DNA from: Gammaproteobacteria bacterium
Lineage (GTDB): Bacteria; Pseudomonadota; Gammaproteobacteria; Eutrophobiales; Eutrophobiaceae
Direction of reading: 5' to 3'
Assembly (NCBI GenBank): GCA_965116585.1
Contig: OZ220714.1
Location: 2,309,247 to 2,373,246 of the forward strand
Length of the DNA: 64,000 nucleotides
Positions 295-27,341 of the stretch are shown here, one piece after another. The notes below the pieces were generated by a model, which saw nothing but the letters and a program-made list of their open reading frames with translations, did no database searches and was not told the origin of the DNA. Numbering within the stretch: the first letter of the stretch is position 1; each line of letters begins with the position of its first letter. The translations under genes and the position numbers were made by a program.

Positions 295-306
295 CACAGA
301 TAGATG

Positions 307-3170: not shown

Positions 3171-3259
3171 AAAAAACACCCCGAAGGGATACTTTGTAAT
3201 GTGTGGCAACTATCAAAAATAATCTGTGTTAATCTGTGTTTGCGCTGTGGATAATCCTT

Positions 3260-3712: not shown

Positions 3713-3868
3713 AAGTAACCTCTAAAAATGCCATCCTTGGCATTTTTAGAGACGGAAACGAAAAATGTCGATTTTCCGTTTCCTTCATTTTCAATCACTT
3801 ACGTGATTAAAAATGGCAGCACATCCTTATGCTGCACGGCCACCTCTAATTTTTAGAGGTGCCCTGAA

Positions 3869-4756: not shown

Positions 4757-4765
4757 CGAGTGAAA

Positions 4766-7592: not shown

Positions 7593-7733
7593 GCCGGGGG
7601 GTGATTAACCACGACTTGGCAGCGTTATCCTGGGAACTGGTAGTGAAGGCGGGACATTAGCGGCCGATACGAGAAGATTAGACCCGATGAATATTGTCCG
7701 TACGTAGGACAGCAAGATATATTGTGATGACGG

Positions 7734-8108: not shown

Positions 8109-8153
8109 AAGTTGTCACGACAGATTCTATCAGGCGGTTAGCAATTCAAGGTT

Positions 8154-8468
8154 TTATGGCGTGGACAAATCGACCAGAATATGTGCATCTTTCACCACCC
8201 TGTCCTGAATATATGGACTCAGATCCCCCATTGTGCGTAAATCAATTTTGCGTTGTCCAAAAAAGAATGACAGGGCTTTTTCCAACCCAACTACTCTGAA
8301 TAGTCCGACTCGAGCGCCAGGTCTGAACTTGACCAACAGATCAATGTCGCTGTCAGGACCGAAATCATTACGCAGCGCTGACCCATACACAGCCAGTTTA
8401 AGGATATCGTTGTTCCGGCAGAACGTTGTAATTTGTTTACTGTCTGGAAGAATCACTTGCGGGTTCAT
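8154..8468 (-). CDS. mnt: MNT nucleotidyltransferase antitoxin (cognate of HepT)
   Basis: GSX10DXD nucleotidyltransferase motif (YGSALRNDFGPDSDIDLLV), 104 aa, upstream of hepT in the same operon. Confidence 0.8.
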   Translation of the reverse strand: MNPQVILPDSKQITTFCRNNDILKLAVYGSALRNDFGPDSDIDLLVKFRPGARVGLFRVVGLEKALSFFFGQRKIDLRTMGDLSPYIQDRVVKDAHILVDLSTP

Positions 8469-8537
8469 GCCTTGCCTGTTTTCGGAATAGTAATATAAGG
8501 ATTTTAACCACGGAGTATTTTATTCGCAATGGACACC

Positions 8538-8656
8538 CTTGGATACCGCTGAGATCTGCTACCATTAACTCCACAAAAAAGAACAGCCGCGTTAGCGGCG
8601 GCTGTCGGGCCGTGGCTCCCTTCCTGTTATGACAAGGTATGGGCATACCAACGGTG
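8538..8656. repeat. Copy 1 of a ~120-170-bp intergenic repeat family (hairpin ACAGCCGC-GTTAGCG-GCGGCTGT preceded by an A-run, plus a TGTCATGACA-like palindrome)
   Basis: Near-identical to 26986..27157 and 13600..13729. Copy 1 diverges after ...CCAACGGTG and abuts the IS66-like insertion. Confidence 0.7.
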
Positions 8657-8794
8657 TTGTTACTTATAACTCAGTATAAGATTTAGCGCCGTGTCAAGGA
8701 AAAAACAGGAAAAATTGTAACTACTCACCCCCTCCCCACTAATTCTACCTGAATTTGCAACAAGGGGTGCTTGACATCATAGTTTTCTGGCGCT

Positions 8795-9472
8795 ATGGTA
8801 GGCGCCATGGGGCATGCGTATCTCGGTTCGAAAGCGACGACGGGGCTGTGCCAACCGTTGATTGCCATGATGCCGCCGCACAGTGTGTACATTGAGACAC
8901 ACTTGGGCGGCGGGGCGATTATGCGGCGCAAGCCGGCGGCGCTGCGCAACATTGGCATTGACATGGATGGGCGGGCGCTGTCGGCGTTCGAGTGTGCGTA
9001 TCCGGTGGAGCTGGTGCAGGGGTGTTGCCACCGGTTTTTAGCGGACTTTCCGTTCGACGGCACGGAGCTGGTGTACAGCGACCCGCCGTATTTGCAGCGT
9101 GCCCGCAAGTCGGGGCGGGGTTATCGGCACGACTACGAGGAGGGCGACCACGAGGCCTTGCTGGCGCTGCTCACGGGGTTGCCGTGTGCGGTGATGCTAT
9201 CGGGGTATCCCTCGGCGTTGTATGACGAGCGGTTGTGTGGCTGGCGCTGCGTGTCGCTGCAGGTGATGAATCAGGCCGGGGTGGTCACGGAGAAGGTATG
9301 GTTCAACTTTGCCCCGGACCGGGTGCACTGGGTGCGTTATGCGGGGCGCAACTTCACGCACCGCCAGCAGGTCAAGCGCAAGGCGGCGAGCTGGGGCCGG
9401 CGGTATCGGGAGTTGCCGCCGGCGGAGCGCCTGGCGGTGCTGGCGGCGATGATGGCGGTGGAGGCGGAGTGA
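8795..9472 (+). CDS. Dam-family N6-adenine DNA methyltransferase (cargo of the IS66-like element)
   Basis: HLGGGAIM (AdoMet-binding FxGxG) followed by the YSDPPY catalytic motif, the D12-class order. The stop lies 4 bp before the transposase start. Confidence 0.75.
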   Translation: MVGAMGHAYLGSKATTGLCQPLIAMMPPHSVYIETHLGGGAIMRRKPAALRNIGIDMDGRALSAFECAYPVELVQGCCHRFLADFPFDGTELVYSDPPYLQRARKSGRGYRHDYEEGDHEALLALLTGLPCAVMLSGYPSALYDERLCGWRCVSLQVMNQAGVVTEKVWFNFAPDRVHWVRYAGRNFTHRQQVKRKAASWGRRYRELPPAERLAVLAAMMAVEAE

Positions 9473-9476
9473 GGGC

Positions 9477-10976
9477 ATGGCGAGCGTGAACAAGACCTCG
9501 CTGCGCACGGAGTTCGAGGCCATCAAGACGCGCTTTGCGGCGCTGTGTGCGGAGGGCAAGCTGAGTCCCGAGGGCCGCGCCCTGTTCGAGGCGATGCTGC
9601 TGCTGTTCGAGTTGCTGCTGGCGGTGTTGATGGAGAAGGCCACGCCGAAGGGAACGCATAACTCGGGCCTGCCGAGTTCCCAAACCGGGCCGGACGAGAC
9701 CGCACGCCGGCAGACCGGCGCCAAGGGCAAGGGGCCGGACCACCGTGCCGCACGGGGCGAGTCAACCCGCGTGGTGGTCGAGACCCGCACCGCCGCGGTC
9801 ACCGAGTGCCGGGCCTGCGGGCGCGACCTCAAGGACCTCCACCCCAGCGGCCACGAGCGGCGCGTGAAGGTCGATATCGTCTTCGAGACAACCGAACTGA
9901 CCGTGAAGGCCGACATCAAGACCTGCCCGCGCTGCCGTACCGAGACCCGCGGGCCGTTTCCGGACACGATGCCGGGCCCCTTGCAGTACGGCCACGGCAT
10001 CGTGGCCTTCGCCACGCACCTGCTCACCGCACAGATGCTCTCACTGCGGCGCGCCGCTCAGACCCTCAAGGCGCTGACCGGGCGCACCATCGCCGAGGCG
10101 ACCTTGCTGGCTTGGCTCTCACGCCTGCACGAGGCCCTGGCCGAGTGGGAGGGGGCCGCCATTGAGCGCCTGCTCGCCGAGCCGGTGCTGCACGCCGATG
10201 AAACCGGCCTGCGCATCGACCGTAAGACCCACTGGCTGCACAGCGTCAGCGCCGGGAACCTGACCGTAAAGCGCGGCCACCGCAAACGGGGCCGCGAGGC
10301 CCTCAAGGACATCGGCATCGTCCCCCGCTATGGCGGTATCCTCGTCCACGACCGCTGGGCCAGCTACTTCGCCTGGGAGAACTGTGAACACGCCCTGTGC
10401 GGCAGCCACCTGCTGCGCGACCTGGCCTTCATCGAAGAGGCCCACGGCCATACCTGGGCAACACGTCTGGGCAACCTCCTGCTCACTACCTGCCGCACCG
10501 TGCGTGACCACCCGAACAAAGCGCTCAGCGACCCCGACTACAAAGCCCTGCGCACACGCTACCGCACCCTCCTCACACAGGCCAGACGGGAACTCCCCAC
10601 ACCCCCTCAGCGTCTCACCGGACAACGCGGACGTATCGCCAAATCCGATGCGCAAAACCTGCATGAAGCCCTCGTCAAGTATGAAACCGACGTGCTGCGC
10701 TTCGCCCGCAACCCCCAGGTCCCGTTCACCAATAACCGCGCCGAGCGCGACCTCCGCATGGCCAAGGTCAAGCAGAAAGTCGCCGGGTGCTTCCGTACCC
10801 CCCACTACGCCGCCGCCTACTGCCGCATCTCCAGCTACTTGCAGTCCATGGCGCTGCAGGGCTACAATCCCCTCACCGCCATCGAGATAGCGCTCAACGG
10901 CAATGCCGCCTCCATGGTAGAGAAACCACCCCAGAATAACCCGGACGACCAGGACCAGGATAAGGGGGGCGAGTAG
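9477..10976 (+). CDS. IS66 family transposase (TnpC-like: zinc ribbon plus DDE domain)
   Basis: CRACGRDL...CPRCRT zinc-finger; ...HADETGLRI...WLHSV... and ...FTNNRAERDLRMAKVKQKVAGCFRT... are IS66 TnpC signature blocks. Confidence 0.9.
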   Translation: MASVNKTSLRTEFEAIKTRFAALCAEGKLSPEGRALFEAMLLLFELLLAVLMEKATPKGTHNSGLPSSQTGPDETARRQTGAKGKGPDHRAARGESTRVVVETRTAAVTECRACGRDLKDLHPSGHERRVKVDIVFETTELTVKADIKTCPRCRTETRGPFPDTMPGPLQYGHGIVAFATHLLTAQMLSLRRAAQTLKALTGRTIAEATLLAWLSRLHEALAEWEGAAIERLLAEPVLHADETGLRIDRKTHWLHSVSAGNLTVKRGHRKRGREALKDIGIVPRYGGILVHDRWASYFAWENCEHALCGSHLLRDLAFIEEAHGHTWATRLGNLLLTTCRTVRDHPNKALSDPDYKALRTRYRTLLTQARRELPTPPQRLTGQRGRIAKSDAQNLHEALVKYETDVLRFARNPQVPFTNNRAERDLRMAKVKQKVAGCFRTPHYAAAYCRISSYLQSMALQGYNPLTAIEIALNGNAASMVEKPPQNNPDDQDQDKGGE

Positions 10977-11036
10977 TTACGAAAAATTTTAATTTGAGTA
11001 GTAATTTAGCTTCACCATGTAGCGCGAGGTGCAACT

Positions 11037-11297
11037 ATGGTAGCCTTTGAAAATCTCTTAAAAACAGAGTCCGATTTCTATGAACGTGAGCAACACAATC
11101 TTTTGGTAAAGTACCCCAACAGGGTTTTGTTAATACACGGTGATCATGTTGAAGGGGATTTTGATTCCGGGAATGCGGCCATATCAGAAGGAGTTCGCAA
11201 GTTTGGTACAGGTCCGTTTTTAGCCAGGAGAGCCGGGGAAGAAGAGCCTGTTTTTTTCAGTGCCAGCATTAACGTTGAGTCTGTAAAATGTCGGTAA
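11037..11297 (+). CDS. 86-aa conserved hypothetical protein (paralog A of the 23007..23267 protein)
   Basis: ~80% aa identity with the ORF at 23007..23267. The ~30 bp upstream (…GTAGCGCGAGGTGCAACTATGG) is also conserved in both copies. No recognisable domain. Confidence 0.6.
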   Translation: MVAFENLLKTESDFYEREQHNLLVKYPNRVLLIHGDHVEGDFDSGNAAISEGVRKFGTGPFLARRAGEEEPVFFSASINVESVKCR

Positions 11298-11352
11298 GAG
11301 TGCAACGGACAGCATTAATCTGGCGATACAGGAAGAATTGGCTGCCAGGTAC

Positions 11353-12447
11353 TTATTTGTTGGATTTCCTGCGATTGCAACCCTTGCATAGCATCTGACA
11401 GTTATCCTCGTTTGTCTTGCCACCCTCCGACCAAGGGGTGATGTGGTCAGCCTCCATGTCCACGATCTCAAACACCTTTGCGCATACCTTGCATATCCCC
11501 TTTTGAATCTCGAACGTCCTCTGCTTCATGGCATCGGAGAAGGCTCGGATGTTGAGATGTTTTTCCTCGCCAGTGAGGAGATACGGGTAGATACCCGCCT
11601 TCTTCGTCACATCGTCGTCGATCATCAGGCGGCCAACCTCGACTTCCAGTCTTTCGGGATCCAGTTTCTCGTTCTTGAGTTGCTTGTAAAGCCCACCCCA
11701 ATCCACTCCCTTCATTTGTGTGCGGTAGTTCGGAAAAACCGCCTCCACCCGGTTGATCACCGCCTGGAAGTGACTCCACAAAGCAGTTGCGGTCTTGTCG
11801 TGCTGATGCACGGCCATATACTGCTCGACCGCCTGGTCCTCGTCCTTGATCCATTGGATTGCGGTTTCGAGGTACTCCTGGCGGTCCGCCCTCCCATTCA
11901 CATAACGGCTGCCGATTGCATAAGCCGGGCAGGTGGCCCCCTTCCTGCTGAAATGCCGCTTTGCATCGGATACCCACGGGCCAGCATAAACCGCGTTCCG
12001 CAACTCCTGGTCGGTCAGCCGCTCGCCTGCAATATTGATGATCCTGAACCAAGCCAGCTTTTCGCTGGCGCTTCCCTCGCAGACATAAACCTGCAACGTG
12101 TAGTTAAGAATCCGATCCTGCTCGTCATCTTGCAGGTTATGGAAATACCGCCCGTCAAGGGAGTAGTCGCCTTCCACATACTGTGCGACTGAGATCGTGC
12201 GCTGCTGGCCGTCGATGACCTCATATGTTCCGTCTTCGCGTAGTGCCCAATACATCACATTGAGCGGAAAGCCCTTGTTGATCGTCTCGATCACAGCATC
12301 GCGTTGCTTGTCCTTATAGACGAACTCGCGCTGAAACGGCGGGCGGATGTCGAGTTTACCGCCATAGCCGCGCACCCCGCCTTCGCCGTCGTCGATGTAG
12401 CCCTTCACAAGGTCGCGGACAGTGACTTTCGTCAGAGCAATTTTCAT
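11353..12447 (-). CDS. DUF262 (ParB-like, DGQQR) N-terminal domain fused to a C-terminal HNH endonuclease
   Basis: EVIDGQQRT is the DUF262 motif. The C-terminus HITPWSEGGKTNEDNCQMLCKGCNRRKSN is an HNH motif. A 4-bp overlap with the upstream MTase gene indicates co-transcription. Confidence 0.75.
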   Translation of the reverse strand: MKIALTKVTVRDLVKGYIDDGEGGVRGYGGKLDIRPPFQREFVYKDKQRDAVIETINKGFPLNVMYWALREDGTYEVIDGQQRTISVAQYVEGDYSLDGRYFHNLQDDEQDRILNYTLQVYVCEGSASEKLAWFRIINIAGERLTDQELRNAVYAGPWVSDAKRHFSRKGATCPAYAIGSRYVNGRADRQEYLETAIQWIKDEDQAVEQYMAVHQHDKTATALWSHFQAVINRVEAVFPNYRTQMKGVDWGGLYKQLKNEKLDPERLEVEVGRLMIDDDVTKKAGIYPYLLTGEEKHLNIRAFSDAMKQRTFEIQKGICKVCAKVFEIVDMEADHITPWSEGGKTNEDNCQMLCKGCNRRKSNK

Positions 12448-13505
12448 CGCGACGGCATTCTCTTAATCAGAATGCGTCTATAGGTGCGTTTGTATTGGCC
12501 TCCCACCTTGATAACCCCTCCTTCCCCGTTCAGGTCGTTATAGTTAGTCGCATCTGCGGACGTGTATTTTTTCGTTTTCAGGCCGTAGCGGTCGTCCCTG
12601 TCTGTTATCCCCATGACTTCAAACTGCCCCGGGTTGTGCTTATCCAGAAACGTAATCGGCACCCCCATCGCCCCGTCCCAATCTATCGGGATTTCGGCGG
12701 TCTTGTCCACGTTGATCGCGTCGTAGTTGTCGTAGGCCGGGTATTCCTCCGGCGAGTAGAGCTTGTAGAGGATCAACTCCTCGTGGCGCTTGGCATGGTC
12801 GAGATTGGTGAACCAGGCCGCGTTGCCCAATCGTCCTTTGATAACTCCCTCGACAACTCTGTAGGCGCTCCCCTCCTTTGCGGTCGCCTCCAATTCCCGC
12901 GCGTATCCCTCCGGCACATCGAACAGCATGTCTTGGCCCTTCGGGGTGACGCCAAGCCACATCGTGCCGTCCTTGATTAGGGGGAAAATCTCCTTGTAGG
13001 TGACGGCGTTCTGACTCCCGACGATCAGGAACTTCTTGCCGTACTGCACCAGTTGGGCGACGTATTCGCGGAACAGCGAAAACGGCGGATTGGTCACCAC
13101 GATGTCCGCCTGCTTCAGAAGCTCAATGCACTCCGCGCTGCGGAAATCGCCGTCCCCCTCAAACTCCCGAATTCCGATATCCCCGACTTCTGGCACCCTG
13201 CCGCCCTTCGCGTTCCCCTTGTATTCGAGCCATATCGCCCGCTCCGAATCGTGACGGCTGAACAAGTCACGTTCCTGGTTCCTGTAGCACGCGGTGATGA
13301 GCGTCTTCAGACCCAGGCGCTCAAAGTTGTATGAGAAATAATGAAAGAAGTTGGAGACGCGGGGGTCGTCGCAGTTACAGTACACAACCTTGTCCCGGAA
13401 ATGTCCAGTGTAGTGGCGCAGCTCGTTTTCGATATCGGAAAGCTGCGTGTAGAACTCGTCGTTCTTTTGCCGTTTGGCGTTGCGTAAGTTTTCATTCAGA
13501 GACAT
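12444..13505 (-). CDS. Adenine-specific DNA methyltransferase, EcoRI-methylase-like family
   Basis: N-terminal ...NDEFYTQLSDIENEL...VVYCNCDDPRVSNFFHYF... block and NPPF catalytic motif (VVTNPPFSL). The family assignment is from memory of M.EcoRI-like sequences. Confidence 0.65.
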   Translation of the reverse strand: MSLNENLRNAKRQKNDEFYTQLSDIENELRHYTGHFRDKVVYCNCDDPRVSNFFHYFSYNFERLGLKTLITACYRNQERDLFSRHDSERAIWLEYKGNAKGGRVPEVGDIGIREFEGDGDFRSAECIELLKQADIVVTNPPFSLFREYVAQLVQYGKKFLIVGSQNAVTYKEIFPLIKDGTMWLGVTPKGQDMLFDVPEGYARELEATAKEGSAYRVVEGVIKGRLGNAAWFTNLDHAKRHEELILYKLYSPEEYPAYDNYDAINVDKTAEIPIDWDGAMGVPITFLDKHNPGQFEVMGITDRDDRYGLKTKKYTSADATNYNDLNGEGGVIKVGGQYKRTYRRILIKRMPSR

Positions 13506-13599
13506 GGGTTTGCTCCCGAACCAAGCCCGTTGTCGACGACTAGCTCCCGAGATTTATACCGCCCCAAACTTCGATACTCTACTACACAATTCCCCAAAA

Positions 13600-13729
13600 A
13601 AAGAACAGCCGCGTTAGCGGCGGCTGTCGGGCCGTGGCTCCCTCCTGTCATGACAAGGCATGGGCACACCAACGGTGAGGTTGAGCAAAGTCTATTATAA
13701 CACCCGACACTGTGTCAATGATTTGAATC
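13600..13729. repeat. Copy 2 of the intergenic repeat family
   Basis: ...CCCCAAAAAAAGAACAGCCGCGTTAGCGGCGGCTGTCGGGCCGTGGCTCCC...GTCAATGATTTGAATC is almost identical to 27020..27157. Confidence 0.7.
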
Positions 13730-13832
13730 GGCCTTGCGGTTGCTTTGTTTCCTCTCTCATCTTCCCTCATCTGCTGTTATTAACTTGTAAATCACGGTAT
13801 AATCTATTGTAATCCTTTTCTGGAATCTGTAT

Positions 13833-14837
13833 ATGTACTCAAATCGAATTTCATTCTACAAACAACTGGAGGATGCCAGACAGTCTAAGGTGCTGGCGTA
13901 TATCACAGGTGACCGGCGCCAATTAGAGACAAAAATGGCTGCGGAGGTTCTAGACTTCTTTGTCCATCATCTTGACAAGATTGGTGTTGTTGGAAAGCTT
14001 TCTCTATTTCTTTATACCCGTGGTGGGGATACTTTATCAGCTTGGAGCCTCGTTAATTTGTTACGTGCTTTTTGCGATAAGCTAGAGATTATCATTCCTT
14101 CAAAAAGCCATAGTGCCGGAACGTTAGTTTGTCTGGGAGCGGATATATTAGTTATGACTAAACAAGCCACTTTGGGTCCTATTGATCCAAGTGTAAATAC
14201 ACCTCTGAATCCTCAAGTTCCGGGTGGACAACCTATGGCAAATGTACCAGTGAGTGTTGAAGATATTAACGCTTTCCTTGAGCATGCCCGAGAAACAGTT
14301 GGTGTGGGCACTCAACCAAACATCGGTACTGTCTTTGATAGACTTGCGCAAAATGTTCATCCTCTCGTTCTTGGAAGCGCCTTTCGAGCGCGCTCACAGA
14401 TTCGCATGTTGGGAAGCAGGCTCCTTGCTAACCACATGGATAATGAAGATGGTATGAATAAAATCCTGGATTTTTTGTGCAGCGAATCTGGCAGCCATGA
14501 CTACACAATAAACAGAAGAGAAGCTCGAGATGATCTATCCTTACCTATTGAGAAACCAAGCTGGGAACTTTACGAAATAATCAAAACTCTGTATGACGAT
14601 ATTGCCTCAGAATTAGAACTGACTACCGCCTATGATCCAAACTTGGTCTTGGGAGGTTCACAAACTAAGAATTATTCATTTACGCGAGCACTGATTGAGA
14701 GCGCGGGGGGTGGTTCAGATGCTTTCTTAAGTGAGGGGGTTCTCAGTCGCCAACAGATTCAAATTCAGCCAGGTGTTGTAGGAGATGCTATCAACGACCA
14801 ACGTCAGTTTGAAGGATGGAGACATCGTGATGCCTAA
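13833..14837 (+). CDS. SDH-family / ClpP-fold (S49-like) serine protease homolog
   Basis: ...LSLFLYTRGGDTLSAWSLVNLLRAF...PSKSHSAGTLVCLGADILVMTKQATLGPIDP... is a ClpP/crotonase-fold protease core with a Ser nucleophile context. Confidence 0.55.
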   Translation: MYSNRISFYKQLEDARQSKVLAYITGDRRQLETKMAAEVLDFFVHHLDKIGVVGKLSLFLYTRGGDTLSAWSLVNLLRAFCDKLEIIIPSKSHSAGTLVCLGADILVMTKQATLGPIDPSVNTPLNPQVPGGQPMANVPVSVEDINAFLEHARETVGVGTQPNIGTVFDRLAQNVHPLVLGSAFRARSQIRMLGSRLLANHMDNEDGMNKILDFLCSESGSHDYTINRREARDDLSLPIEKPSWELYEIIKTLYDDIASELELTTAYDPNLVLGGSQTKNYSFTRALIESAGGGSDAFLSEGVLSRQQIQIQPGVVGDAINDQRQFEGWRHRDA

Positions 14838-15075
14838 CATCGATAATCCACATCTATCTGTCAAATTAACCCAAGCTAGCGGTATGACCCCGAGCATAGC
14901 AGAAGACACAATCGCGACCGATAACCTTTCTGCTATGATGAAAAATGCTATTGTCATTTTTCAGTCAACACTTACTTTAATTGACTCTCCTTCCCAATAT
15001 CAGAGTGAAGATGGGACTGCTGAAAGGGCTAAAGATTTCGATACAAGTACAAAGCCTCAGATATCAGAGGGGTAG
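14830..15075 (+). CDS. Small hypothetical protein (81 aa), start overlapping the protease stop
   Basis: ORF only; ATG at 14830 overlaps 14837. No known domain; it may be spurious. Confidence 0.25.
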   Translation: MPNIDNPHLSVKLTQASGMTPSIAEDTIATDNLSAMMKNAIVIFQSTLTLIDSPSQYQSEDGTAERAKDFDTSTKPQISEG

Positions 15076-15085
15076 GTATCTCTGA

Positions 15086-15299
15086 CTAGTACTCTTTCAA
15101 TTTAATTCTGACCGGTTAGCTTGTCATAAGCGGTTCACTCCAACGATACTGACCAGCCCAAAGAAACGGTACCAGATGTAAAGTGAGGGATCAGCATTAT
15201 GCCGCCTTTTTTCTTTCTTTTCGATATCTGTCAGCAAACGCCACCACTCGATTAATCTTGACCCGTCGATCAATCAGAATTAAATTGAAAGAGTACTAG
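15086..15299. mobile_element. MITE-like element: 25-bp perfect terminal inverted repeats flanking ~164 bp
   Basis: CTAGTACTCTTTCAATTTAATTCTG (15086..15110) is the exact reverse complement of 15275..15299. It sits between two convergent gene ends; the right inverted repeat overlaps the stop codon of the NACHT gene. Confidence 0.5.
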
Positions 15300-18200
15300 T
15301 GTGGCAAACGAATCTCGCGGAATGCCTCACCGAGCTGAAGTGCCACACTTCGCCGGTCACCCATGTCGACAAGTATGTCGAGGATATGTAAGAACTTCTG
15401 AGCCAAAGCCAGCGCCATTGGCGCGTCACGATGTACAAAGTGTTGTATCATCTCCGCTATGCGCTCCGGGATGAACGTTCCATACCAACCCTTTAGGTTG
15501 TCGGGTCCATCGCCGATAATTGCGAGCACCTGATCCGCGAAGGCTTCGGCTGGGTAGTCGGCCCTGGCTCGCTCACAGAGCGTCAAGAACGGGTCCATAA
15601 CGGAAGCTGCCCATCCGCCAGCGCGAACGAAACGATCAATCAGCGGCAGGATGCGGCTGATTTCGGACCAGTCGCCGTTGACGTAGCGAGTGGCCAGGTC
15701 CGCGCGTTCGACTGAGACAAACATTAACGTGCGAACAAGTTTGGGCAGATCGAAGCCATAGAGATTTCCTCTCCGGTAGCCGTTTTTCTGTAAGGCTGGG
15801 GCTTGCAGAAGCCGGTCAAGACAAAGGTCCAGCGTCGCGACTGCATCCTCTGGGACTACCGGCGCATCGTACACGTAGGAGCAGATGTAAGTATCTACGA
15901 ATGGAGAGAGAAGATCCCAGCAATTGTCACCCTCGATCCCCAATATTGGGTCGAGGAAACGGGCCTGAAAATCACTAAGAGGTAGAAGGCCGACCACCTG
16001 GCCGAGTGCCGACCCGAGGGCGTGGGTCCATTCAAAGCTCTCGGTTGCCGAACGATCTCGACGTCCGGGCTTCATCCAAGGCGGCACATTCTTCTGATTG
16101 GTCCAGTCGAGAACCCCTGTCAGAAAGTTGAGGAGTGCGCTTTTTGCGCTACTGCTTAGGGCCCCGTCGAAGGGGATGCGCTCCAAAATTTCCGCCGCCC
16201 GCTTTGAGTACCAATAGACATCCGGTTCACCCCATACTTCATCTGCGTCGACCGTATCATCTGCATCGTACTCTACAAATCTTTGACACCCACTTCGACC
16301 CTTCCCGGGTTTGACCTTCATCCAGGCCGGAGGCGGTAGCGGAAGGGGCACCCATCCGCTACCGTTTTGATAGAACGCAACCGCCACATCGACCGCCGCT
16401 TGCGCTTCACTTGACGAGTGGAGCGCTTCATTGTGTTGCCTAAGTTGGCCACGCGGCCGCGGAGGAATATGACAGAGCGAAAATGCCAAGATCAGCGCGG
16501 CCCAAGTGAGCTTGGGGTCCTTAGACCAAAGCCTGCACGCTTCTTCGAGCGCAGCTAACGAAACGGCTTCGAGTGGATGCGCAATCAGCCCAAGGAGGTC
16601 GTGAGCTGTGCCCTGTTCGGCTGTGCCTTCGTGGAGGTCCGCTGCGAAGCCTCGCGCTACGTAGATCGCGTGGTGCCATGGGATGACGGAACCAGGCGGC
16701 CACGTCTGACCAGGCTTTTCTGGTAAACGGATAGCGCGTGCCAGGACATCTCGAGACCACTCAAGGTTTTCTTGTGTGCATCGCTCGCGAAAGTTAAGCG
16801 TGATTGCCGCGGTAGCGGCGACTGCGCCACGACGCATACCCGATAGTTCTTCTTCGTCCTCGTCGTCCAGGTGCCTGAACAAGTCGCGGGAGTCCGCTTC
16901 CTTGGCCAATGCTATGGCCCCTTCGACCGTGTAGGTATCGCTCAGTGTCTTCTTCTCGAATGACTTGGAGGCCCAAGTCCAAAGGTTTGTCTGGGCAAGA
17001 CGCTTAGACGCCCCTTCGGCTCTGGTAACGTTTTCAGGCTTAGCAGCAGAAGGACTAACATGGACAACCGCAACCTGGTCCGAATCCTCTTTGGTGCGGT
17101 AAACCTGATAGTTTTCCGGGTCAACTAACTCTGCATATTCCAAGGCCTGAGATGTAAGGTCCTCGCGTGCCTCCAGAATGTCGCGGTGCTCTTCGTACTG
17201 GTAGGGCAAATCGTTCTTAAAATTGAGGACCGCTTCGCGGACCCGGTGGCGGAGCGGTGCCGTCCCAAAGAAAAACATAGGTACCATCCAGCTAAGCTGT
17301 TTGTTACGGACTGGTCTGGCATTTGCTGCTTGGATCGCCTCAATGTGGTGATTATCGTTGCTATTCGTAAAACCGATCAGGTTATTCGTTGACGAAAAGT
17401 CTTGTACCATTCGGTTACGGTCTGCAGTCAACAGTCGTTGTGAGGTAACGAGGGGAAAAGTCGCTTCGCACACCGTCTCGGTATCGAGCGCAAGCATCGA
17501 CGCGATGCCCAGGATGGCGATGCATTCATTCCCTTCTACGATTTGCTGGATCAGTTCATCTACGGCGCGGTTACGCTCAAGCTCGGTGAAGCACCACTCT
17601 TCAAGCGCCATAAACCCGCAACCGATGGCTGCCGGCGCCCACGTTGAACGAAACCAAAGATATTCCCGATCAGTGCCCCAGAACTTTTGGGTGTCCCAGG
17701 GAAACGTCAGTTCGAGTGGTACGGGGGTGCCGCGACGGTCGGGTGAGTGACGATGCAGTTGTCGCCACGCAATCATCGCGTGATTGCAGAGCTCTCGAAG
17801 AAGCCGCAGTGCGTCGTTGGGCGATGATTGGAAAAGCGAGTGAAAGGGCTCTCGAAGCGGTGAAGCATTCGGGAAGCATCGGTGGTCGTCGTGGACCGAC
17901 AGCCTGTTCCAGTCGTGGTGGCTGAAATTGCCGACGGTTCGTAGGGAAAGCGCCCCCGAAAGCGCGATTTCATCTTGACGCGAGCGCTCGGCGTCCGGCT
18001 TGGCAAGAGCTGCTTTGCGCCAGTCAGCCGCATCATGTTGTTCCTGCTTCTCGCGGGCAACTCGCTCGTCCGGAAGCTCCCTTCGCAGGAACGCCAGTGA
18101 AAGCTTAACCACCGGCTGGGGTAATGACTGGGCGAGGACGGGTGAGAAGGTGATGATGTCATGAAATACCTCGTCGCGGATTTGCTTTGAGCTGATTGCT

Positions 18201-20680
18201 CGCTGCAAATAGTTGGCTGCAAGGGCAGGCTCGGCTCTCGATGATCTCAGTAGAAGCTGTCCAAGAGATTTTCGGAAAGCATCCAGGTCGGATACCTTCG
18301 CCCAGTAAGCAGAGTTCTCATCAGGCCCATCGGCGGTACTGATCGCGTCGATGGCGGCGAGCCAGGTAGCGCACTGTTGCAGAAGAGCGCGGGACGTTGG
18401 GTTGCGAATGTCGGCCAGGATATTCTGCCAGACATCGAAGACAGCCACGATCTCCGGATAAAGCCTCTGCGGAATGCCTGAAATGCGTCGAAGGATAAAG
18501 TCGATTAGGCGACGCCACGCGGAGAGGTCGGAAGGCCATCCGAGAAAATAGGCAATCCGTTGTCGTTGCTCTAGTGGATACTCCCCAGAAAGGATCATTT
18601 CATTCGGGGTAGTCTTCTCAGCCTGAAACCAGACGAGCGTCTTCCTGAAAAGGTAGAAGTCATTGGCAAAGACGGCCATCGCGAATTGATCCTCATCAAC
18701 TTCAAACCTCGCAGTTCCGAAAGGACCCACCAGCCAGGCTCGCAACCATTGTGATCTTAGACCTGAATCCCCAGCTTGGGCGAGGTACACTGGCCAGTCT
18801 GCTCCATGTGCATACTCCCATTGGGAAGCGAGTTCGACGACGCGCGCGACCGCTGGTGGTTCGCCGCAGTCCTTGATCACTTCTATCCATTGTGGCCCGC
18901 GATCGGCAAGGACGTGGAAGAAGGCCCATTCAAAGAAGATATCGTGGGCGAAACGGACGGAGATCCCTTCGCGGACATTCAGGAGTATGCCGTCCGATCT
19001 CAGGTCATTGATGTATGTAACGGAGTTGAGTTGGCCAAGGCCAATCGGTTGGCTAAGTTGACGGGCATGAACACGCGCTAAGTTGAGCAGCGCGCGTTGG
19101 CGTTCAATTGCGCGTTGGCCTGTTTCATTGTAGCCGCCCCGTCGCCACCAATTCTCGATCAGATCGATTTCAGATTGTGGAGCGAATGTCGAAGTGCTGG
19201 GGTCGGCTACGTAACCCTGGTTCAGCACCTTCGCGAAAAAGGGTCGTCGGACAATCTCTATCACCTGCGCTGGTCCAAACAGAAGTGGCTTGAGGTGTGG
19301 TTTGGCTTTTGCAAGCGTGTCTGCTTCGTCGTCGCTCAGCTGACCAACGACAAGCGTCTCGACCTTCAGCGCATCAAGGAAGTTACCCAACCAATTACGA
19401 AGCATTTCAATGCCGGTGTCGCGAAGGGAGACAACGACGCGCCAGTTATCGAGTAACGGTGACTCCACGATGGTGCGGACCACATCAATGATGATGGGCT
19501 GGTGCTCATTATTGATGCGATCAATTGCATCAATGAAGAGTATGGGAGTACCGGCAGCCGCAATCTCCAGGAGAAGGTGCTCCAAGGAGGTACCCGAAAG
19601 ACCCTGCGAGGCAGCGTAGCTGGTCCAGCTGGTGCCTTCGAGTTGTTCGGCTTTGAGGAAGAGGACCGGTCCGTGTTCTAACGCGCGCTGTAATGTCCGC
19701 TTTACTACAACTGATTTACCGCTTCCGGGTAGACCGCGCACCTGGACGACACGAGCAGTTGTGAGTTTTGCGTCCAGTTCCTCAAGGAGTGAGGCTCGGT
19801 CGAGCTTCATGCCTCCGATATCATCCGGGATGAGGGTTGCATAGCTCATTGCAAGCTCTGTCAGCTTGTCGAGGTCGGGGCGCAATGAGATCGAGCCGCA
19901 AAGGCGTGCGATTGGTGAAATCAAGCGCACAAGCCGCGCGCGATCAAATTGGCCTGACTTGCCTGCTGATGCGCGGGCTAGTTGAACGAACCGCGACCAG
20001 ATGAGAGGCGCCTTGGCTGTATCATCGGGCGCAAGGCAATCTCGAATGCGATTAATGGCATTAGGGGGATCCGTGGCGCCTTCACGAAGGAAGTCGAACT
20101 GAATGAGCACGAAGTGCGCGAGAAAATGATGCACTTCCTCAGATGTGCATGGTGTCCCCTTCGATTCTTCCAGTAAGGCAACGATGTCATTTTTGACGGC
20201 TTTGATGCCGCCCCTGGCATTGCCCCCCTTTGCAAAGCGAGCGTCGAAATGGTCTGCCGTCAGACTTTCACGAGCCCAATCACAAAGGGTCTTGAGCGCT
20301 CGCTCTTTGGCAGGGGAGATCGTGCCAACTGCAGCGCCGTAACGGTCGGCACTGACGCGGAAGTCAGACTTTCCAAGAGTAGCCCAACTGTCGAGAATGA
20401 TGCCGCGAAAGTGTTTGTTCGTTATTGCATTGCTGATCGTGAGCGAACGCTTTACTTGTAGGCTGAGGCGGGCAGGCTTTTTTTCGGCGTCTTCAAAGTC
20501 AATAATTACATCATCGAGAGGTTCGCCGAAGTCGCGCTGCTGAACTGACACACTGACAACGGTTCGATCATCCATGCCGGGGGCATACTCTTCGGCAAGA
20601 AGCGCGGTGAGATAAAACGCAGCCACATCTCCTTCAAAGGTGAAACCCTCGCCGCCAGCGAGTTCAGGTGATTGTTTCAT
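15296..20680 (-). CDS. 1794-aa NACHT/STAND-type P-loop NTPase with an N-terminal PD-(D/E)xK-like nuclease domain and a long helical C-terminal region (Avs / bacterial-NACHT-like antiphage protein)
   Basis: Walker A VRGLPGSGKSVVV. NACHT-type Walker B PILFIDAIDRI (hhhhDxhD). N-terminal GFTFEGDVAAFYL...VIIDFED...LSLQVKRS resembles Cap4/Mrr-like D...(E/Q)xK nucleases. About 1300 aa of the C-terminus is alpha-helical and W/L-rich. Confidence 0.6.
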   Translation of the reverse strand: MKQSPELAGGEGFTFEGDVAAFYLTALLAEEYAPGMDDRTVVSVSVQQRDFGEPLDDVIIDFEDAEKKPARLSLQVKRSLTISNAITNKHFRGIILDSWATLGKSDFRVSADRYGAAVGTISPAKERALKTLCDWARESLTADHFDARFAKGGNARGGIKAVKNDIVALLEESKGTPCTSEEVHHFLAHFVLIQFDFLREGATDPPNAINRIRDCLAPDDTAKAPLIWSRFVQLARASAGKSGQFDRARLVRLISPIARLCGSISLRPDLDKLTELAMSYATLIPDDIGGMKLDRASLLEELDAKLTTARVVQVRGLPGSGKSVVVKRTLQRALEHGPVLFLKAEQLEGTSWTSYAASQGLSGTSLEHLLLEIAAAGTPILFIDAIDRINNEHQPIIIDVVRTIVESPLLDNWRVVVSLRDTGIEMLRNWLGNFLDALKVETLVVGQLSDDEADTLAKAKPHLKPLLFGPAQVIEIVRRPFFAKVLNQGYVADPSTSTFAPQSEIDLIENWWRRGGYNETGQRAIERQRALLNLARVHARQLSQPIGLGQLNSVTYINDLRSDGILLNVREGISVRFAHDIFFEWAFFHVLADRGPQWIEVIKDCGEPPAVARVVELASQWEYAHGADWPVYLAQAGDSGLRSQWLRAWLVGPFGTARFEVDEDQFAMAVFANDFYLFRKTLVWFQAEKTTPNEMILSGEYPLEQRQRIAYFLGWPSDLSAWRRLIDFILRRISGIPQRLYPEIVAVFDVWQNILADIRNPTSRALLQQCATWLAAIDAISTADGPDENSAYWAKVSDLDAFRKSLGQLLLRSSRAEPALAANYLQRAISSKQIRDEVFHDIITFSPVLAQSLPQPVVKLSLAFLRRELPDERVAREKQEQHDAADWRKAALAKPDAERSRQDEIALSGALSLRTVGNFSHHDWNRLSVHDDHRCFPNASPLREPFHSLFQSSPNDALRLLRELCNHAMIAWRQLHRHSPDRRGTPVPLELTFPWDTQKFWGTDREYLWFRSTWAPAAIGCGFMALEEWCFTELERNRAVDELIQQIVEGNECIAILGIASMLALDTETVCEATFPLVTSQRLLTADRNRMVQDFSSTNNLIGFTNSNDNHHIEAIQAANARPVRNKQLSWMVPMFFFGTAPLRHRVREAVLNFKNDLPYQYEEHRDILEAREDLTSQALEYAELVDPENYQVYRTKEDSDQVAVVHVSPSAAKPENVTRAEGASKRLAQTNLWTWASKSFEKKTLSDTYTVEGAIALAKEADSRDLFRHLDDEDEEELSGMRRGAVAATAAITLNFRERCTQENLEWSRDVLARAIRLPEKPGQTWPPGSVIPWHHAIYVARGFAADLHEGTAEQGTAHDLLGLIAHPLEAVSLAALEEACRLWSKDPKLTWAALILAFSLCHIPPRPRGQLRQHNEALHSSSEAQAAVDVAVAFYQNGSGWVPLPLPPPAWMKVKPGKGRSGCQRFVEYDADDTVDADEVWGEPDVYWYSKRAAEILERIPFDGALSSSAKSALLNFLTGVLDWTNQKNVPPWMKPGRRDRSATESFEWTHALGSALGQVVGLLPLSDFQARFLDPILGIEGDNCWDLLSPFVDTYICSYVYDAPVVPEDAVATLDLCLDRLLQAPALQKNGYRRGNLYGFDLPKLVRTLMFVSVERADLATRYVNGDWSEISRILPLIDRFVRAGGWAASVMDPFLTLCERARADYPAEAFADQVLAIIGDGPDNLKGWYGTFIPERIAEMIQHFVHRDAPMALALAQKFLHILDILVDMGDRRSVALQLGEAFREIRLPH

Positions 20681-20782
20681 CGCTAGCTTGAGTCTCGTGA
20701 GTAAACATCAGTCGTGGGAGCGATTGAGATAGATTATGCGCCGAGAATGGACTGCGGGCAATGAAGGATTAAATTCATAACT

Positions 20783-21196: not shown

Positions 21197-22276
21197 ATGT
21201 TTGGACAAAGACTCAGATTAGCGCGAAAGAAGGCTGGGTTATCAATGCAGGCCCTTGCAAACAGCGTTATACCCAAAGTTAGCGCACAAGCAATCAGCAA
21301 ATATGAGGCGGAAAAGATGATGCCTTCTTCAGCGGTGCTGGTCGGACTAAGCAAAACGCTTGGCGTGTCCATTGACTTCCTCATGGGAGGGCAAGTCGAA
21401 ACCCTGAAAGGTGTCGAGTTCCGCAAACATTCCGGCACCTCGGCACGAGATCGCGCCCGCGTCGAAGCAATTGTGACTGAAAAGGTCGAAGACTATCTGG
21501 CAATTGAAGACATTCTGGAACTGGTTCCGCTTGCCAATCCCTTTGGCGATCTGGTGACCGATGAGATTGAGAGTATCGAGTACGTTGATGACATGGCCCG
21601 GGCTTTGCGGGAGAAATGGCTGCTGGGACTGGATCCAATTCCCAGCATGTCTGCGCTGCTGGAAGATAAGGGGATTAAAGTTATCGAAGCGGATCTACCG
21701 GATCGTTTCGACGGAATGGCTTGTGATGTAAAGCGTAGTGAGGGCAGACCTGACACGGCAGTCGTCGTTGTGTCCAATCGTACTAATATTGAACGCAAAC
21801 GATTTACTCTCGCCCATGAACTCGCACACAGAGTCATTCGCTCGACTGGTAATCCAGGTATCAATCTTGAAAAAGCCATGAACCGCTTCGCAGGTGCATT
21901 TCTTGTACCAAGCGAACATTTAGTCAAGGAAGCCGGGGCACATCGGCACGGCATGACTTATCACGAGTTGGTTCGGCTAAAACATCTTTATGGCGTTTCG
22001 GCGGTGGCACTGTTGATGCGGCTTATGCAGGTAGATATTTTGTCAAAAGCGGCGACCGAATATGCCTTCCGCAGCTATGCACGCACTTGGCGAGTTGAAG
22101 AACCTGAGCCGATCCGTAATGATGAGGGCTTTGGCACCTTTGAACGGCCACAGCGTTTCGAGCGACTGGTTTGGTGGGCCTTGGGAGAACACCTGATTTC
22201 GTCTGTACGCGCAGCGCAGTTCTTACGTTTGCCGGTTTCGACTATCGAACAGGAAATTCGAGGGCCACAAGACTGA
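21197..22276 (+). CDS. XRE-family HTH domain fused to an ImmA/IrrE-family (COG2856) zinc metallopeptidase
   Basis: N-terminal HTH (FGQRLRLARKKAGLSMQALANSV...SKYE) and a HEXXH motif (LAHELAHRV). Confidence 0.8.
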   Translation: MFGQRLRLARKKAGLSMQALANSVIPKVSAQAISKYEAEKMMPSSAVLVGLSKTLGVSIDFLMGGQVETLKGVEFRKHSGTSARDRARVEAIVTEKVEDYLAIEDILELVPLANPFGDLVTDEIESIEYVDDMARALREKWLLGLDPIPSMSALLEDKGIKVIEADLPDRFDGMACDVKRSEGRPDTAVVVVSNRTNIERKRFTLAHELAHRVIRSTGNPGINLEKAMNRFAGAFLVPSEHLVKEAGAHRHGMTYHELVRLKHLYGVSAVALLMRLMQVDILSKAATEYAFRSYARTWRVEEPEPIRNDEGFGTFERPQRFERLVWWALGEHLISSVRAAQFLRLPVSTIEQEIRGPQD

Positions 22277-22786
22277 TGACCTGTGTCGCTGTCAATGATG
22301 CGTCTTGTCTGATAGACCTTCGAAAAGGGCAGCTTCTGCATGTTTTGTCGCGCCTGCCTTATCGTTTCATCGTACCGCTACCAATACGTGTGTCAGAATT
22401 ACTTGACTTCACGCCCCAGGAATGGGCAATTCTCGATGGTGGAGGTATGGAAACCTACCGACCTTCCTCCAAAACGGATGGTGGATGTATTCGCACTAAA
22501 GAGGCAACACGGGAGGCTAACAGCTAACGACTGCTTTTGCTTGGTGGCCACACAATGTCACGAGGGAGGAATTCTTCTGACCGGTGATAGTCTTCTGCGC
22601 AAAGTCGCGTCCGAGGTCGGTATTGAAGTCCATGGTGTGCTCTGGGTCATCAAAGAATTTATAGCAGCCGATGTCTGTGATAAGGCGCTTCTGATAAGAG
22701 CTTTAAATATTTGGAAAGACGATGCAACAGTTTTCCTTCCTAAGTCTGAGATCGAACAGCAGTTAAGCGTCCTTCTTTCCTCATGA
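22276..22786 (+). pseudogene. PIN/DUF4411-like nuclease gene interrupted by a +1 frameshift (two overlapping ORFs, 22276..22527 and ~22450..22786)
   Basis: ATG overlaps the upstream stop (TGATG). N-terminal part MTCVAVNDASCLIDL... is in frame 1; C-terminal part ...RLTANDCFCLVATQ...GILLTGDSLL... (PIN-like acidic motif) is in frame 2. The total ~170 codons fit a single PIN gene. Confidence 0.55.
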
Positions 22787-23360: not shown

Positions 23361-25322
23361 GTGCAAATTTCAACAATTCTTGATTATATCGATTATGGTC
23401 ACATAGCTCTTCCAGAGTTTCAGCGAGGGTATGTTTGGAATCGGGACCAAGTACGGAGGCTGTTTGATTCTCTTTATTACCGGCATCCGATAGGTGGGCT
23501 TCTAGTCTGGGCAACTGACGCACGCACCGCAGCATTTCGGGGAGATGGGCCAATAGCCCCAGGAGTTGTCAAACTCCTACTAGATGGCCAGCAACGAATG
23601 ACCTCTCTTTACGGCGTCATTCGTGGCCATGCCCCAAAATTCTTCGATGGGAACGATTACACTTTTACAGGTCTTAGCTTTCACTTAGATACTCAAACTT
23701 TTGCCTTTTATCAGCCGATAAAGATGAAAGATGATCCCCTATGGATTGATGTCTCTCAACTCATGAAGGCTGGTACAGATGGTATTGACGGATTTACCTC
23801 CAAGCTCAGTGAGAATCTGGAATTGTCCCAGAAAGGAGTTGGAATGTATGCAGGGCGATTGATTCGTTTACTTGGTATAAGAGATATTGATCTTCATATT
23901 GAGGAGTTAACAGGTGCAGATAAAACCATTGATGTCGTAGTCGATATTTTCAACCGGGTTAACAGCGGCGGCACAAAGCTTTCCAAGGGTGACCTCGCCC
24001 TTGCCAAGATATGTGCTGATTGGCCCGAAGCGAGAGATGCGATGAAAACGACACTCAAGGGGTGGTCTGACGCAGGATATGGCTTCAATATAGACTGGTT
24101 GTTGCGTTCGGTAAACACTGTGCTCACCGGCGAAGCCAAATTTCAGTATTTGCATGATAAAGATGCTATTGAAATACAAGATGGTTTAAACCGCGCTGTT
24201 AAACATATTAATAATTGTCTCAATATGATTGCCGGACGACTGGGGCTTGACCATGATCGAGTTTTCTTTGGTCGGTTTGCAGTACCAGTGATTGTGAGAT
24301 ATCTGGATCGAAGAGGTGGAATGCTCAATGAACAAGAGAGGGATAAGCTTCTATTCTGGTTTGCGCAGGCAGGGATGTGGGGCCGTTTCTCAGGCTCAAC
24401 TGAATCCTACATTGATCAAGACCTTGAAGCTCTCGAAGGCGAGCATGGTGGGCTTAATCAGCTTATAGAACAGCTTCGTCTTTGGCACGGGGGACTGCGT
24501 GTCGAACCGGGACATTTCACAGGCTGGAGTATGGGAGCCCGGTTTTATCCGGTGCTCTACATGCTAACAAGGATGGGGGAAGCCCTCGACTGGGGAACCG
24601 GTTTGCCTCTTAAAGCAAGCCTTTTAGGAAAAATGAACAGTCTTGAAGTCCATCATATCTTCCCAAAATCACAACTATATGATCGAGACTTTTCCAGACA
24701 AGATGTGAATGCGCTCGCAAATTTCTGTTTTTTGACCAAGGATACAAATCTGGTTATAGGTAACAAATTACCGGAAATTTACTTCCCAAAAATTGAGGAG
24801 GCCCATCCGGGCGCACTGAAATCACAATGGATACCCGATGATCCTGTCCTCTGGAATGTAAGTAATTTCCTTGAATTCCTTGAGGCCAGAAAAGCTCTTC
24901 TTGCAGATGAGGTAAATCACCGCATGGAAGAGTTGCTTCATGGTGATAAAAGTTGGCTCACTGGACCGTCTACACCAATGCCAGTGCTTGAACCAATATC
25001 TGTTCCTGGCAGTATAGAAAGTGAGGATGAGGAAAAAGAACTTGAAGATGTCAATAGCTGGATTTCTAAAAATGGACTCCCTCGCGGTACCTTGTCCTAT
25101 GATTTTTCCGACCCTGTAACTGGACAGCAAAAGGCTTTGTTTGATTTGGCTTGGCCGAATGGCATCCAGGAGGAATTAAGCCAGCCGGTTGCCCTGCTGT
25201 TGAATGAAAGTAGTGAGGTTTTAGCCATCGCAAGTCAGGCAGGGTATCGGTGTTTTCTGAGCACTGCTGACCTGCGACGATATATTCAATCAGAGGTGTT
25301 GATTGAAGAAGTCGTTTCTTGA
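23361..25322 (+). CDS. GmrSD-family (DUF262 + DUF1524/His-Me) type IV restriction-like endonuclease
   Basis: GTG start. N-terminal ...LLDGQQRMTSL is the DUF262 motif. ...LEVHHIFPKSQL...NALANFCFLTKDTN is the DUF1524 HNH-like motif. There is a ~150-aa C-terminal extension. Confidence 0.75.
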   Translation: MQISTILDYIDYGHIALPEFQRGYVWNRDQVRRLFDSLYYRHPIGGLLVWATDARTAAFRGDGPIAPGVVKLLLDGQQRMTSLYGVIRGHAPKFFDGNDYTFTGLSFHLDTQTFAFYQPIKMKDDPLWIDVSQLMKAGTDGIDGFTSKLSENLELSQKGVGMYAGRLIRLLGIRDIDLHIEELTGADKTIDVVVDIFNRVNSGGTKLSKGDLALAKICADWPEARDAMKTTLKGWSDAGYGFNIDWLLRSVNTVLTGEAKFQYLHDKDAIEIQDGLNRAVKHINNCLNMIAGRLGLDHDRVFFGRFAVPVIVRYLDRRGGMLNEQERDKLLFWFAQAGMWGRFSGSTESYIDQDLEALEGEHGGLNQLIEQLRLWHGGLRVEPGHFTGWSMGARFYPVLYMLTRMGEALDWGTGLPLKASLLGKMNSLEVHHIFPKSQLYDRDFSRQDVNALANFCFLTKDTNLVIGNKLPEIYFPKIEEAHPGALKSQWIPDDPVLWNVSNFLEFLEARKALLADEVNHRMEELLHGDKSWLTGPSTPMPVLEPISVPGSIESEDEEKELEDVNSWISKNGLPRGTLSYDFSDPVTGQQKALFDLAWPNGIQEELSQPVALLLNESSEVLAIASQAGYRCFLSTADLRRYIQSEVLIEEVVS

Positions 25323-27157: not shown

Positions 27158-27341
27158 ACAAGCCAGGTACCCTCATCCGGCATCGAAAGCGTTACATCAA
27201 GATAAATCCACTTTATGGTGGTATTTCAGACAGAATATGTTGTTTATTACCTTGTATTTTTGACAATTACTGTTAATAATAACCTTGTATTTTTGACATT
27301 TCTGTATTATAGTGCCTTCTTATTTGCCGGAGGTACCAACC

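Follow-up and report, generated by a model that had tools for sequence, protein, structure and literature searches.

Known Avs proteins and the present locus

The Avs3 and Avs4 proteins are phage-activated, non-specific DNA endonucleases (PMC11564622). In the characterised members the type of effector and the phage protein that triggers it have been paired: EcAvs4 (AVAST type 4; Protein Data Bank (PDB) entry 8DGF, bound to the PhiV-1 portal) carries an Mrr nuclease and responds to the portal, SeAvs3 (PDB 8DGC) carries a Cap4 nuclease and responds to terminase, and SeAvs7 (PDB 9N00) carries a Cap4 nuclease and responds to the major capsid protein. In all three the phage protein binds the sensor one-to-one, the ATP-bound nucleoside triphosphatases (NTPases) form a tetramer, and the nucleases, thus juxtaposed, cut double-stranded DNA (dsDNA). 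Here we describe a gene for a protein of 1794 amino acids (aa) in a gammaproteobacterial genome (assembly GCA_965116585.1). It was found in a stretch of 64,000 nucleotides of contig OZ220714.1 (positions 2,309,247 to 2,373,246), to which we refer as the window. The gene probably encodes a stand-alone Avs4-type antiviral STAND protein, in which a Cap4-type PD-(D/E)xK effector takes the place of the Mrr-like nuclease and which would act through abortive infection upon sensing a phage protein.

EcAvs4 is by far the closest solved relative. Like the protein described here, it unites an N-terminal nuclease, a STAND NTPase and a helical sensor of very large size in a single polypeptide, and the NTPase, the winged-helix region and ~400 residues of the sensor can be aligned by profile. 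The two differ in the effector, which is of the Mrr type in EcAvs4 and of the predicted Cap4 type here, and the alignment begins at Avs4 residue 178. In addition, the 1794-aa protein is ~200 aa longer and only ~14% identical. SeAvs3 and SeAvs7 are Avs proteins with Cap4 nuclease effectors, as predicted here, but in NTPase and sensor they represent other Avs families and, save for one weak stretch of SeAvs7, their sequences do not match the nuclease domain. A sequence-only reading of the window had proposed the Avs order of effector, NTPase and sensor for this gene. That architecture is borne out and can be sharpened, as the likeness to Avs4 covers the NTPase and extends over the whole sensor. 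The features of the gene are as follows.

15296..20680, minus strand: complete gene of 1794 aa for a Cap4-type nuclease, an Avs4-like STAND NTPase and an Avs4-like helical sensor, as judged from the open reading frame (ORF), its translation and full-length homologues
20733..20761, minus strand: promoter-like site TTGCCC-17-CATAAT, ~50 nucleotides upstream of the ATG; a weak candidate, matched to the consensus only
19886..20680, minus strand: N-terminal effector, aa 1-~265, with a predicted Cap4-type PD-(D/E)xK core (aa ~13-125) and a helical extension (aa ~126-265)
20507..20521, minus strand: PLDDV, aa 54-58, with P54, D56 and D57 invariant and directly preceding strand beta-2 (58-63); predicted metal-binding acidic residues
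20450..20461, minus strand: LQVK, aa 74-77, with the invariant Q75-x-K77 in strand beta-3 (69-80); (D/E/Q)xK element, the lysine of which is predicted to be catalytic
18881..19813, minus strand: STAND NTPase module, aa ~290-600, with nucleotide-binding, helical and winged-helix domains, delimited by Avs4 profile matches
19712..19735, minus strand: Walker A motif GLPGSGKS, aa 316-323, with G316, G319, G321 and K322 invariant; aligns with GEGGVGKT of EcAvs4
19514..19540, minus strand: Walker B motif LFIDAIDRI, aa 381-389, with D384 and D387 invariant; aligns with VIVVDSAEK of EcAvs4
19418..19432, minus strand: VSLRD, aa 417-421, with the invariant R420 as predicted sensor-1 arginine; aligns with FTTRN of EcAvs4
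18926..18952, minus strand: FAHDIFFEW, aa 577-585, with the invariant H579-D580 as MHD-like winged-helix histidine motif; aligns with THDIYEEW of EcAvs4
15299..18880, minus strand: C-terminal sensor, aa 601-1794, a scaffold of mostly alpha-helical repeats that takes the EcAvs4 sensor fold, as judged from the AlphaFold2 model, Foldseek and profile alignment
15320-15391, minus strand: C-terminal motif LDxLVDxGDRRSAxLQxSExF, aa 1764-1787, with G1774 and R1777 invariant and D1775 and R1776 at least 90% conserved

The ORF is single and uninterrupted, and its ATG is the first possible start. All strings that had been quoted from it in the sequence-only reading are present in the translation; a script located FTFEGD at aa 13-18 and confirmed PLDDV, LQVK, GLPGSGKS and LFIDAIDRI at the positions given above. 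A search of 5.8 billion proteins yielded 755 matches to the 1794-aa protein, and the best 120 of these are nearly all full length (1775-1823 aa) at 73-87% identity. The agreement of the N-terminus and of the length with those of full-length homologues implies that the gene is intact and under selection, and not a chance ORF. The gene is thus real and intact.

The predicted N-terminal nuclease domain

The structure of the N-terminal domain was modelled with AlphaFold2 on an alignment of 26 sequences, which gave a confident model (predicted local distance difference test (pLDDT) 91.0, predicted template-modelling score (pTM) 0.86). The order of its elements, alpha1(15-29)-beta(40-46)-beta(58-63)-beta(69-80)-alpha(89-102)-beta(113-121) with a helical extension behind it, is in the predicted model that of a PD-(D/E)xK core with a Cap4-type helical extension. 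Indeed, the top matches in a Foldseek search of the PDB were Cap4-type defence nucleases only: LmuA (E=5e-7), HamA (E=8e-6), Cap4 (E~1e-5), SeAvs3 (E=1e-4) and HerA-DUF4297 (E=3e-4). Cap4 itself (of CBASS), LmuA (Lamassu), HamA (Hachiman) and DUF4297-HerA depend for their activation on cyclic nucleotides, SMC-like proteins or partner helicases, where the present protein has a fused STAND sensor.

The conservation of individual residues is in line with the predicted fold. Over 61 full-length homologues, with identities down to 25%, P54, D56, D57, Q75 and K77 never vary, and E16 is conserved in at least 90%. In the model E16 lies on alpha1, D56 and D57 just before beta2, and Q75 and K77 on beta3, which are the positions expected of the catalytic residues of a PD-(D/E)xK enzyme, but with Q in place of D/E. 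Moreover, no other part of the protein is as well conserved as the nuclease core (mean identity 0.50). Fold and motif therefore support a Cap4-type nuclease that has QxK for (D/E)xK and lies outside Pfam DUF4297 as judged by hidden Markov model (HMM). The sequence-only reading had called this domain a PD-(D/E)xK nuclease of the 'Cap4/DUF4297- or Mrr-like' kind. The nuclease call is upheld by fold and not by sequence, and the Cap4 type stands, whereas membership of DUF4297 by HMM and the Mrr type do not. An Mrr-like effector was rejected, as EcAvs4, which carries one, is absent from the fold matches of the domain, and the Avs4 alignment starts past its Mrr domain.

The only relatives of the domain that could be found by sequence are two PADLOC models, the candidate PDC-M54A and DUF626_VIII (PDLC02918), which represents the accessory protein of type VIII retrons. 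Positions 1-228 of the latter profile match aa 1-245 at E=6e-24, and all 26 diverse members tested match it as well (best E=7e-32). The retron protein is thus the closest sequence relative of the domain, although it is itself only ~470 aa long, has neither STAND NTPase nor sensor and partners a reverse transcriptase. It was annotated as a putative serine esterase by Mestre et al. 2020 (PMC7736814). The first ~228 profile positions of this accessory protein correspond to the very domain that here folds, in the model, as a Cap4-type nuclease, and the effectors of type VIII retrons may accordingly carry an overlooked nuclease module.

The STAND NTPase

The relation to EcAvs4 is clearest in the NTPase. 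When the single sequence of the protein was searched against the PDB, EcAvs4 (8DGF) was the only match, and with the family profile the match reached E=1.8e-25, profile positions 265-777 aligning with Avs4 residues 178-670. Other solved Avs proteins scored far weaker with that profile (SeAvs7 at 2e-4, Avs2 at 8.5e-3), and Avs3 was not detected by it among the PDB chains. The NCBIfam Avs4 model NF041815 matches aa 291-590 at E=8e-28, and the PADLOC Avs4 model matches at E=5e-21, likewise in the NTPase only. Sequence comparison thus supports a clear homology of the NTPase to that of EcAvs4.

The motifs, whose invariance was judged over the 61 homologues, point in the same direction. In addition to those listed above, RRPFF contains an invariant proline (P480) that corresponds to the 'GxP'-type proline motif of the helical domain and aligns with KNPFY of EcAvs4. 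The functions given for R420, P480 and H579-D580 are those suggested by the HMM alignment to EcAvs4. Together, the P-loop, the predicted sensor-1 arginine, the helical-domain proline motif and the MHD-like histidine make up the sequence signature of a STAND protein. In fact, all sequence features of the STAND superfamily for which the protein was examined were found, including the tripartite layout of effector, NTPase and repeat sensor.

The sequence-only reading had described the module as a NACHT/STAND NTPase. The STAND part of that name stands on the homology to EcAvs4, whereas the NACHT part is marginal. The protein does resemble the bNACHT proteins and Pfam NACHT (PF05729) in its hhhhDxxD-type Walker B motif and its STAND layout. 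Nevertheless, a Pfam search with the whole protein returned only generic P-loop families (AAA_16 at E=1e-3, nSTAND5 and nSTAND6 at ~0.1-0.2) and no NACHT match at E<=1. When the NTPase region was isolated, NACHT scored 15.0 bits (E=0.023), under its gathering threshold of 26.7. Across the family NACHT was matched in 20 of 21 members, at sub-threshold to weak scores (best E=2.4e-9), and two fragments pass the threshold (27.8 and 31.0 bits). The families nSTAND1, nSTAND3, NPHP3_N and AAA_16 score comparably to NACHT on the same region and, given also the sub-threshold score, the module cannot be placed firmly in the NACHT clade. A KAP or AAA+ transposition ATPase, the alternative that had been named at the outset, was rejected: KAP_NTPase was matched in only 5 of 21 members, at E values of at least 0.005, and the homology to Avs4 is far stronger.

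The C-terminal sensor

The region behind the NTPase, for which alpha-helical repeats had been expected from the sequence, is indeed predicted to be almost wholly alpha-helical. The AlphaFold2 model of aa 600-1794, built from 61 sequences, has a pLDDT of 90.7 and a pTM of 0.86. In a Foldseek search of the PDB it matched both EcAvs4 chains of the complex with the PhiV-1 portal (8dgf_A and 8dgf_B) at E=9e-18 and 1.3e-17, with template-modelling (TM) scores of 0.60-0.61 over ~1260 columns. Generic solenoids followed 13 orders of magnitude behind, the next match being importin-13 (E=6e-5, TM 0.20). The match to EcAvs4 implies that the whole sensor, as predicted, has the Avs4 fold. A second stretch of the profile alignment, which places profile positions 918-1319 on EcAvs4 residues 765-1178 (E=4e-9), extends the homology of the NTPase into the sensor.

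Lee et al. 2026 (PMC13581612) clustered sensors at Foldseek E<=1e-10, TM>=0.4 and 80% coverage, and by these measures we infer that the present sensor would probably fall with Avs4. The 1794-aa protein is not Avs11, to which the same authors ascribed no similarity to Avs4.

The motif LDxLVDxGDRRSAxLQxSExF closes an otherwise variable sensor, the last 90 residues of which are conserved again. One may speculate, from the contacts that the C-lobe makes in apo SeAvs7, that it forms an autoinhibitory contact with the NTPase or the nuclease.

Distribution and organisation of the family

Clustered at 50% identity, the N-terminal domain is present in at least 1361 clusters. The best 150 of these were inspected for architecture and are either proteins of ~1720-1940 aa or fragments with that architecture, cut off by contig ends. 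Short matches of 400-730 aa were considered as possible other architectures and rejected, as all ten that were tested hold the same STAND NTPase and are fragments truncated by contig ends. When one genome of each species was scanned for a pattern, relatives turned up in 302 stretches, and they occur in at least 302 species genomes. The 79 loci that were retrieved derive from Gamma-, Beta-, Alpha- and Epsilonproteobacteria and, outside the Proteobacteria, from Desulfobacterota, Verrucomicrobiota, Acidobacteriota, Nitrospirota, Nitrospinota, Chlorobiaceae, Actinomycetota and a Negativicute.

Protein identity across phyla is as high as 71-80%, for instance among sequences from Desulfurispirillum, from Nitrosomonas and from metagenome-assembled genomes of Acidobacteriota and Nanopelagicaceae, which is unusually tight for a defence protein of 1800 aa. 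Identities of this order between phyla imply recent horizontal transfer, and the sequences suggest that one allele group has spread recently between phyla.

A clustering of 894 flanking ORFs revealed no conserved neighbour gene at 84 loci, and the only recurrent neighbour is a P4-type integrase (13 of the 84). A multi-gene system, suggested by the match to PDC-M54A and by the SDH protease and HTH-IrrE genes next to the gene in the window, was rejected accordingly, since no partner other than integrases was found at the 84 loci. Individual homologues adjoin a type I restriction-modification (R-M) system, a SAVED-type CBASS operon, a PIN gene (likely a toxin of a toxin-antitoxin system), IS91 or an integrase. 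The lack of a fixed partner, together with surroundings of mobile elements and defence genes, is the profile of a stand-alone defence gene that is carried as cargo of mobile islands.

Two IMG/VR contigs carry a copy that is 60% identical. In one of them (1-17355, classed as viral) the homologue is flanked to one side by genes for a tyrosine integrase, a KfrA-like protein and a Zot-type protein (inovirus assembly), and to the other by an AbiGi-like gene. The gene may thus ride on, or sit beside, integrated elements that resemble filamentous phages.

Proposed mechanism and alternatives

By analogy with EcAvs4, SeAvs3 and SeAvs7 the following course of events can be drawn. In the uninfected cell the protein would be an autoinhibited, ADP-bound monomer. 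A newly made structural protein of an infecting phage, most probably the portal, would bind to the large helical C-terminal sensor, and binding would open the NTPase for nucleotide exchange, whereupon ATP would drive oligomerisation, probably to a tetramer. The Cap4-type nuclease domains, thus juxtaposed, would form active dimers and cut dsDNA indiscriminately, and the infection would be aborted. In the Cap4-type nuclease LmuA, oligomerisation is needed to build the DNA-cleaving site and the catalytic lysine K68 is essential. Antiphage activity, the oligomeric state and DNA as the substrate all follow by analogy in this scheme, and taken alone the portal as trigger is about an even bet.

Several observations weigh against an Avs4-type, portal-sensing nuclease. 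With respect to the effector, no Pfam family (DUF4297/Cap4 and Mrr included) matched aa 1-290 of the window protein or of 25 diverse homologues at E<=10, and the family profile of the domain found no meaningful chain among all PDB sequences, the top matches being a dynein and a designed protein at E>0.08. The nuclease call therefore rests on predicted structure and motif conservation. Moreover, the middle catalytic position is occupied by Q75, neither D nor E. With respect to the NTPase, the NF041815 score of 96.2 bits is far from the equivalog cut-off of 1500 and covers aa 291-590 only. Finally, the structural alignment of the sensor to EcAvs4 shows only 14% identity, its aa ~1100-1550 form the most variable stretch of the family (mean identity 0.25-0.28), and the related KpAvs2 recognises several unrelated phage proteins (PMC11564622). 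With 14% identity, and 96 against 1500 bits, the portal-binding surface is not necessarily retained.

These last points bear on the alternative that survives best, namely that architecture and Cap4-type DNase output are as proposed, but that something else than the portal acts as trigger: another phage protein, a number of unrelated proteins or a perturbation of the host. The divergence and variability of the sensor and the precedent of KpAvs2 are all compatible with it, as is the fact that shared sensor folds can be re-targeted, while the distinct folds of Avs4 and Avs11 converge on the portal. Nevertheless, the whole sensor superposes on portal-bound EcAvs4 (TM 0.60) and no other structure competes for the match. 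In addition, a 2026 survey found that one sensor type prevails in most defence clades and that every family tested was specific for one protein fold. We regard another trigger as rather unlikely. The same modest chance applies to a more far-reaching version, in which the protein would represent a functionally distinct Avs family: its sensor would have been re-targeted, either away from the portal or towards a great variety of portals, and its nuclease would form a separate Cap4-like QxK subfamily, shared only with the effectors of type VIII retrons and possibly with another substrate or mode of cleavage.

The position of Q75 and the missing match to characterised Cap4/DUF4297 families could also mean that the nuclease is catalytically dead and serves as oligomerisation platform only, or that it targets RNA. 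We consider this very unlikely. Like D56, D57 and K77, Q75 shows no variation, and E16 shows little, which argues for selection on an active site and not for decay. The nuclease core is, in fact, the most conserved region of the protein, and QxK is an accepted form of the PD-(D/E)xK motif, for instance in Mrr-type enzymes.

The least probable alternative, to which we attach hardly any weight, is a non-defence STAND NTPase (such as a regulatory protein, or one for maintenance of, or addiction to, the mobile island) with a DNA-binding or scaffolding N-terminal domain: STAND clades do switch between defence and non-defence roles and the gene travels with integrases and insertion sequence (IS) elements, but its catalytic-type residues are invariant over deep divergence, immune proteins are the nearest relatives of all three modules, its neighbours are repeatedly defence systems that differ by locus, and a Pfam search of the full protein found no DNA-binding helix-turn-helix (HTH) or regulator-type output domain.

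The defence island in the window

The gene lies in a defence island, as had been proposed, with toxin-antitoxin, R-M and other defence genes and a protease gene around it. Between 7.7 and 28.7 kb the GC content is 0.52, versus 0.59 in the rest of the window. Metabolic genes border the island: a xanthine-dehydrogenase-like gene (5205-7592) on one side and a major facilitator superfamily transporter (28678-29808) on the other. The other genes of the island are as follows.

7734-8468, minus strand: HepT/MNT toxin-antitoxin pair
8795-10976, plus strand: 225-aa ORF with an IS66-family transposase (9477-10976) directly after it
11353-13505, minus strand: type II R-M pair of restriction endonuclease and methyltransferase
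13833-15075, plus strand: SDH-type ClpP-like serine protease of 334 aa (13833-14837) and an overlapping 96-aa ORF
21197-22276, plus strand: RmrA-like gene of 359 aa with HTH and IrrE/M78 peptidase domains
22340-22786, plus strand: 148-aa ORF after the HTH-IrrE gene, with no Pfam or PADLOC match
23361-25322, plus strand: 653-aa GmrSD_N protein, HEC-05 match at E=1e-42
27312-28670, plus strand: AAA_14/DUF4143 ATPase, PDC-S01 match at E=8.5e-152

A type II methyltransferase model of 295 positions aligns with residues 92-173 of the 225-aa ORF, but only by its C-terminal positions 203-286, and the ORF may be the remnant of a methyltransferase that was disrupted by the IS. The R-M pair combines an EcoRI-type adenine methyltransferase (Pfam E=3e-132) not with an EcoRI-like endonuclease, but with a GmrSD_N (DUF262) and HNH nuclease, which matches the PADLOC REase_II model end to end (E=4e-138). 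Encoded on the other strand, the SDH protease and the 96-aa ORF follow directly downstream of the Avs gene. Neither has a PADLOC match or is conserved beside the homologues, and they probably represent an unrelated island gene. The HTH-IrrE gene and the 148-aa ORF diverge from the Avs gene. The former matches 14 PADLOC models of RmrA, the antitoxin-like component of RosmerTA (best E=1.6e-43), and the 148-aa ORF could be its cognate toxin.

Significance

The concept as such is not new. Cap4-nuclease Avs proteins and Avs4-type sensors have both been characterised, and the swapping of effectors among Avs families is established. The suggestion of the sequence-only reading that the protein may form a new subfamily therefore holds only modestly: SeAvs3 and SeAvs7 already combine a Cap4 effector with an Avs sensor, and what the sequences define is a divergent Avs4-type lineage that is not fully recognised by NCBIfam, PADLOC and Pfam. 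Pfam leaves the protein without annotation, the Avs4 models of NCBIfam and PADLOC recognise the NTPase only, and in public records the homologues are named 'ATP-binding protein' or 'hypothetical'.

The finding ties the nuclease module of the type VIII retron accessory proteins to the Cap4 fold. At 14% identity, the protein also provides a distant test case for the question whether the Avs4 sensor fold keeps its specificity for the portal. It marks an Avs4-type lineage that is widespread and highly mobile, with members among environmental Proteobacteria, Verrucomicrobiota, Acidobacteriota, Nitrospirota and others.

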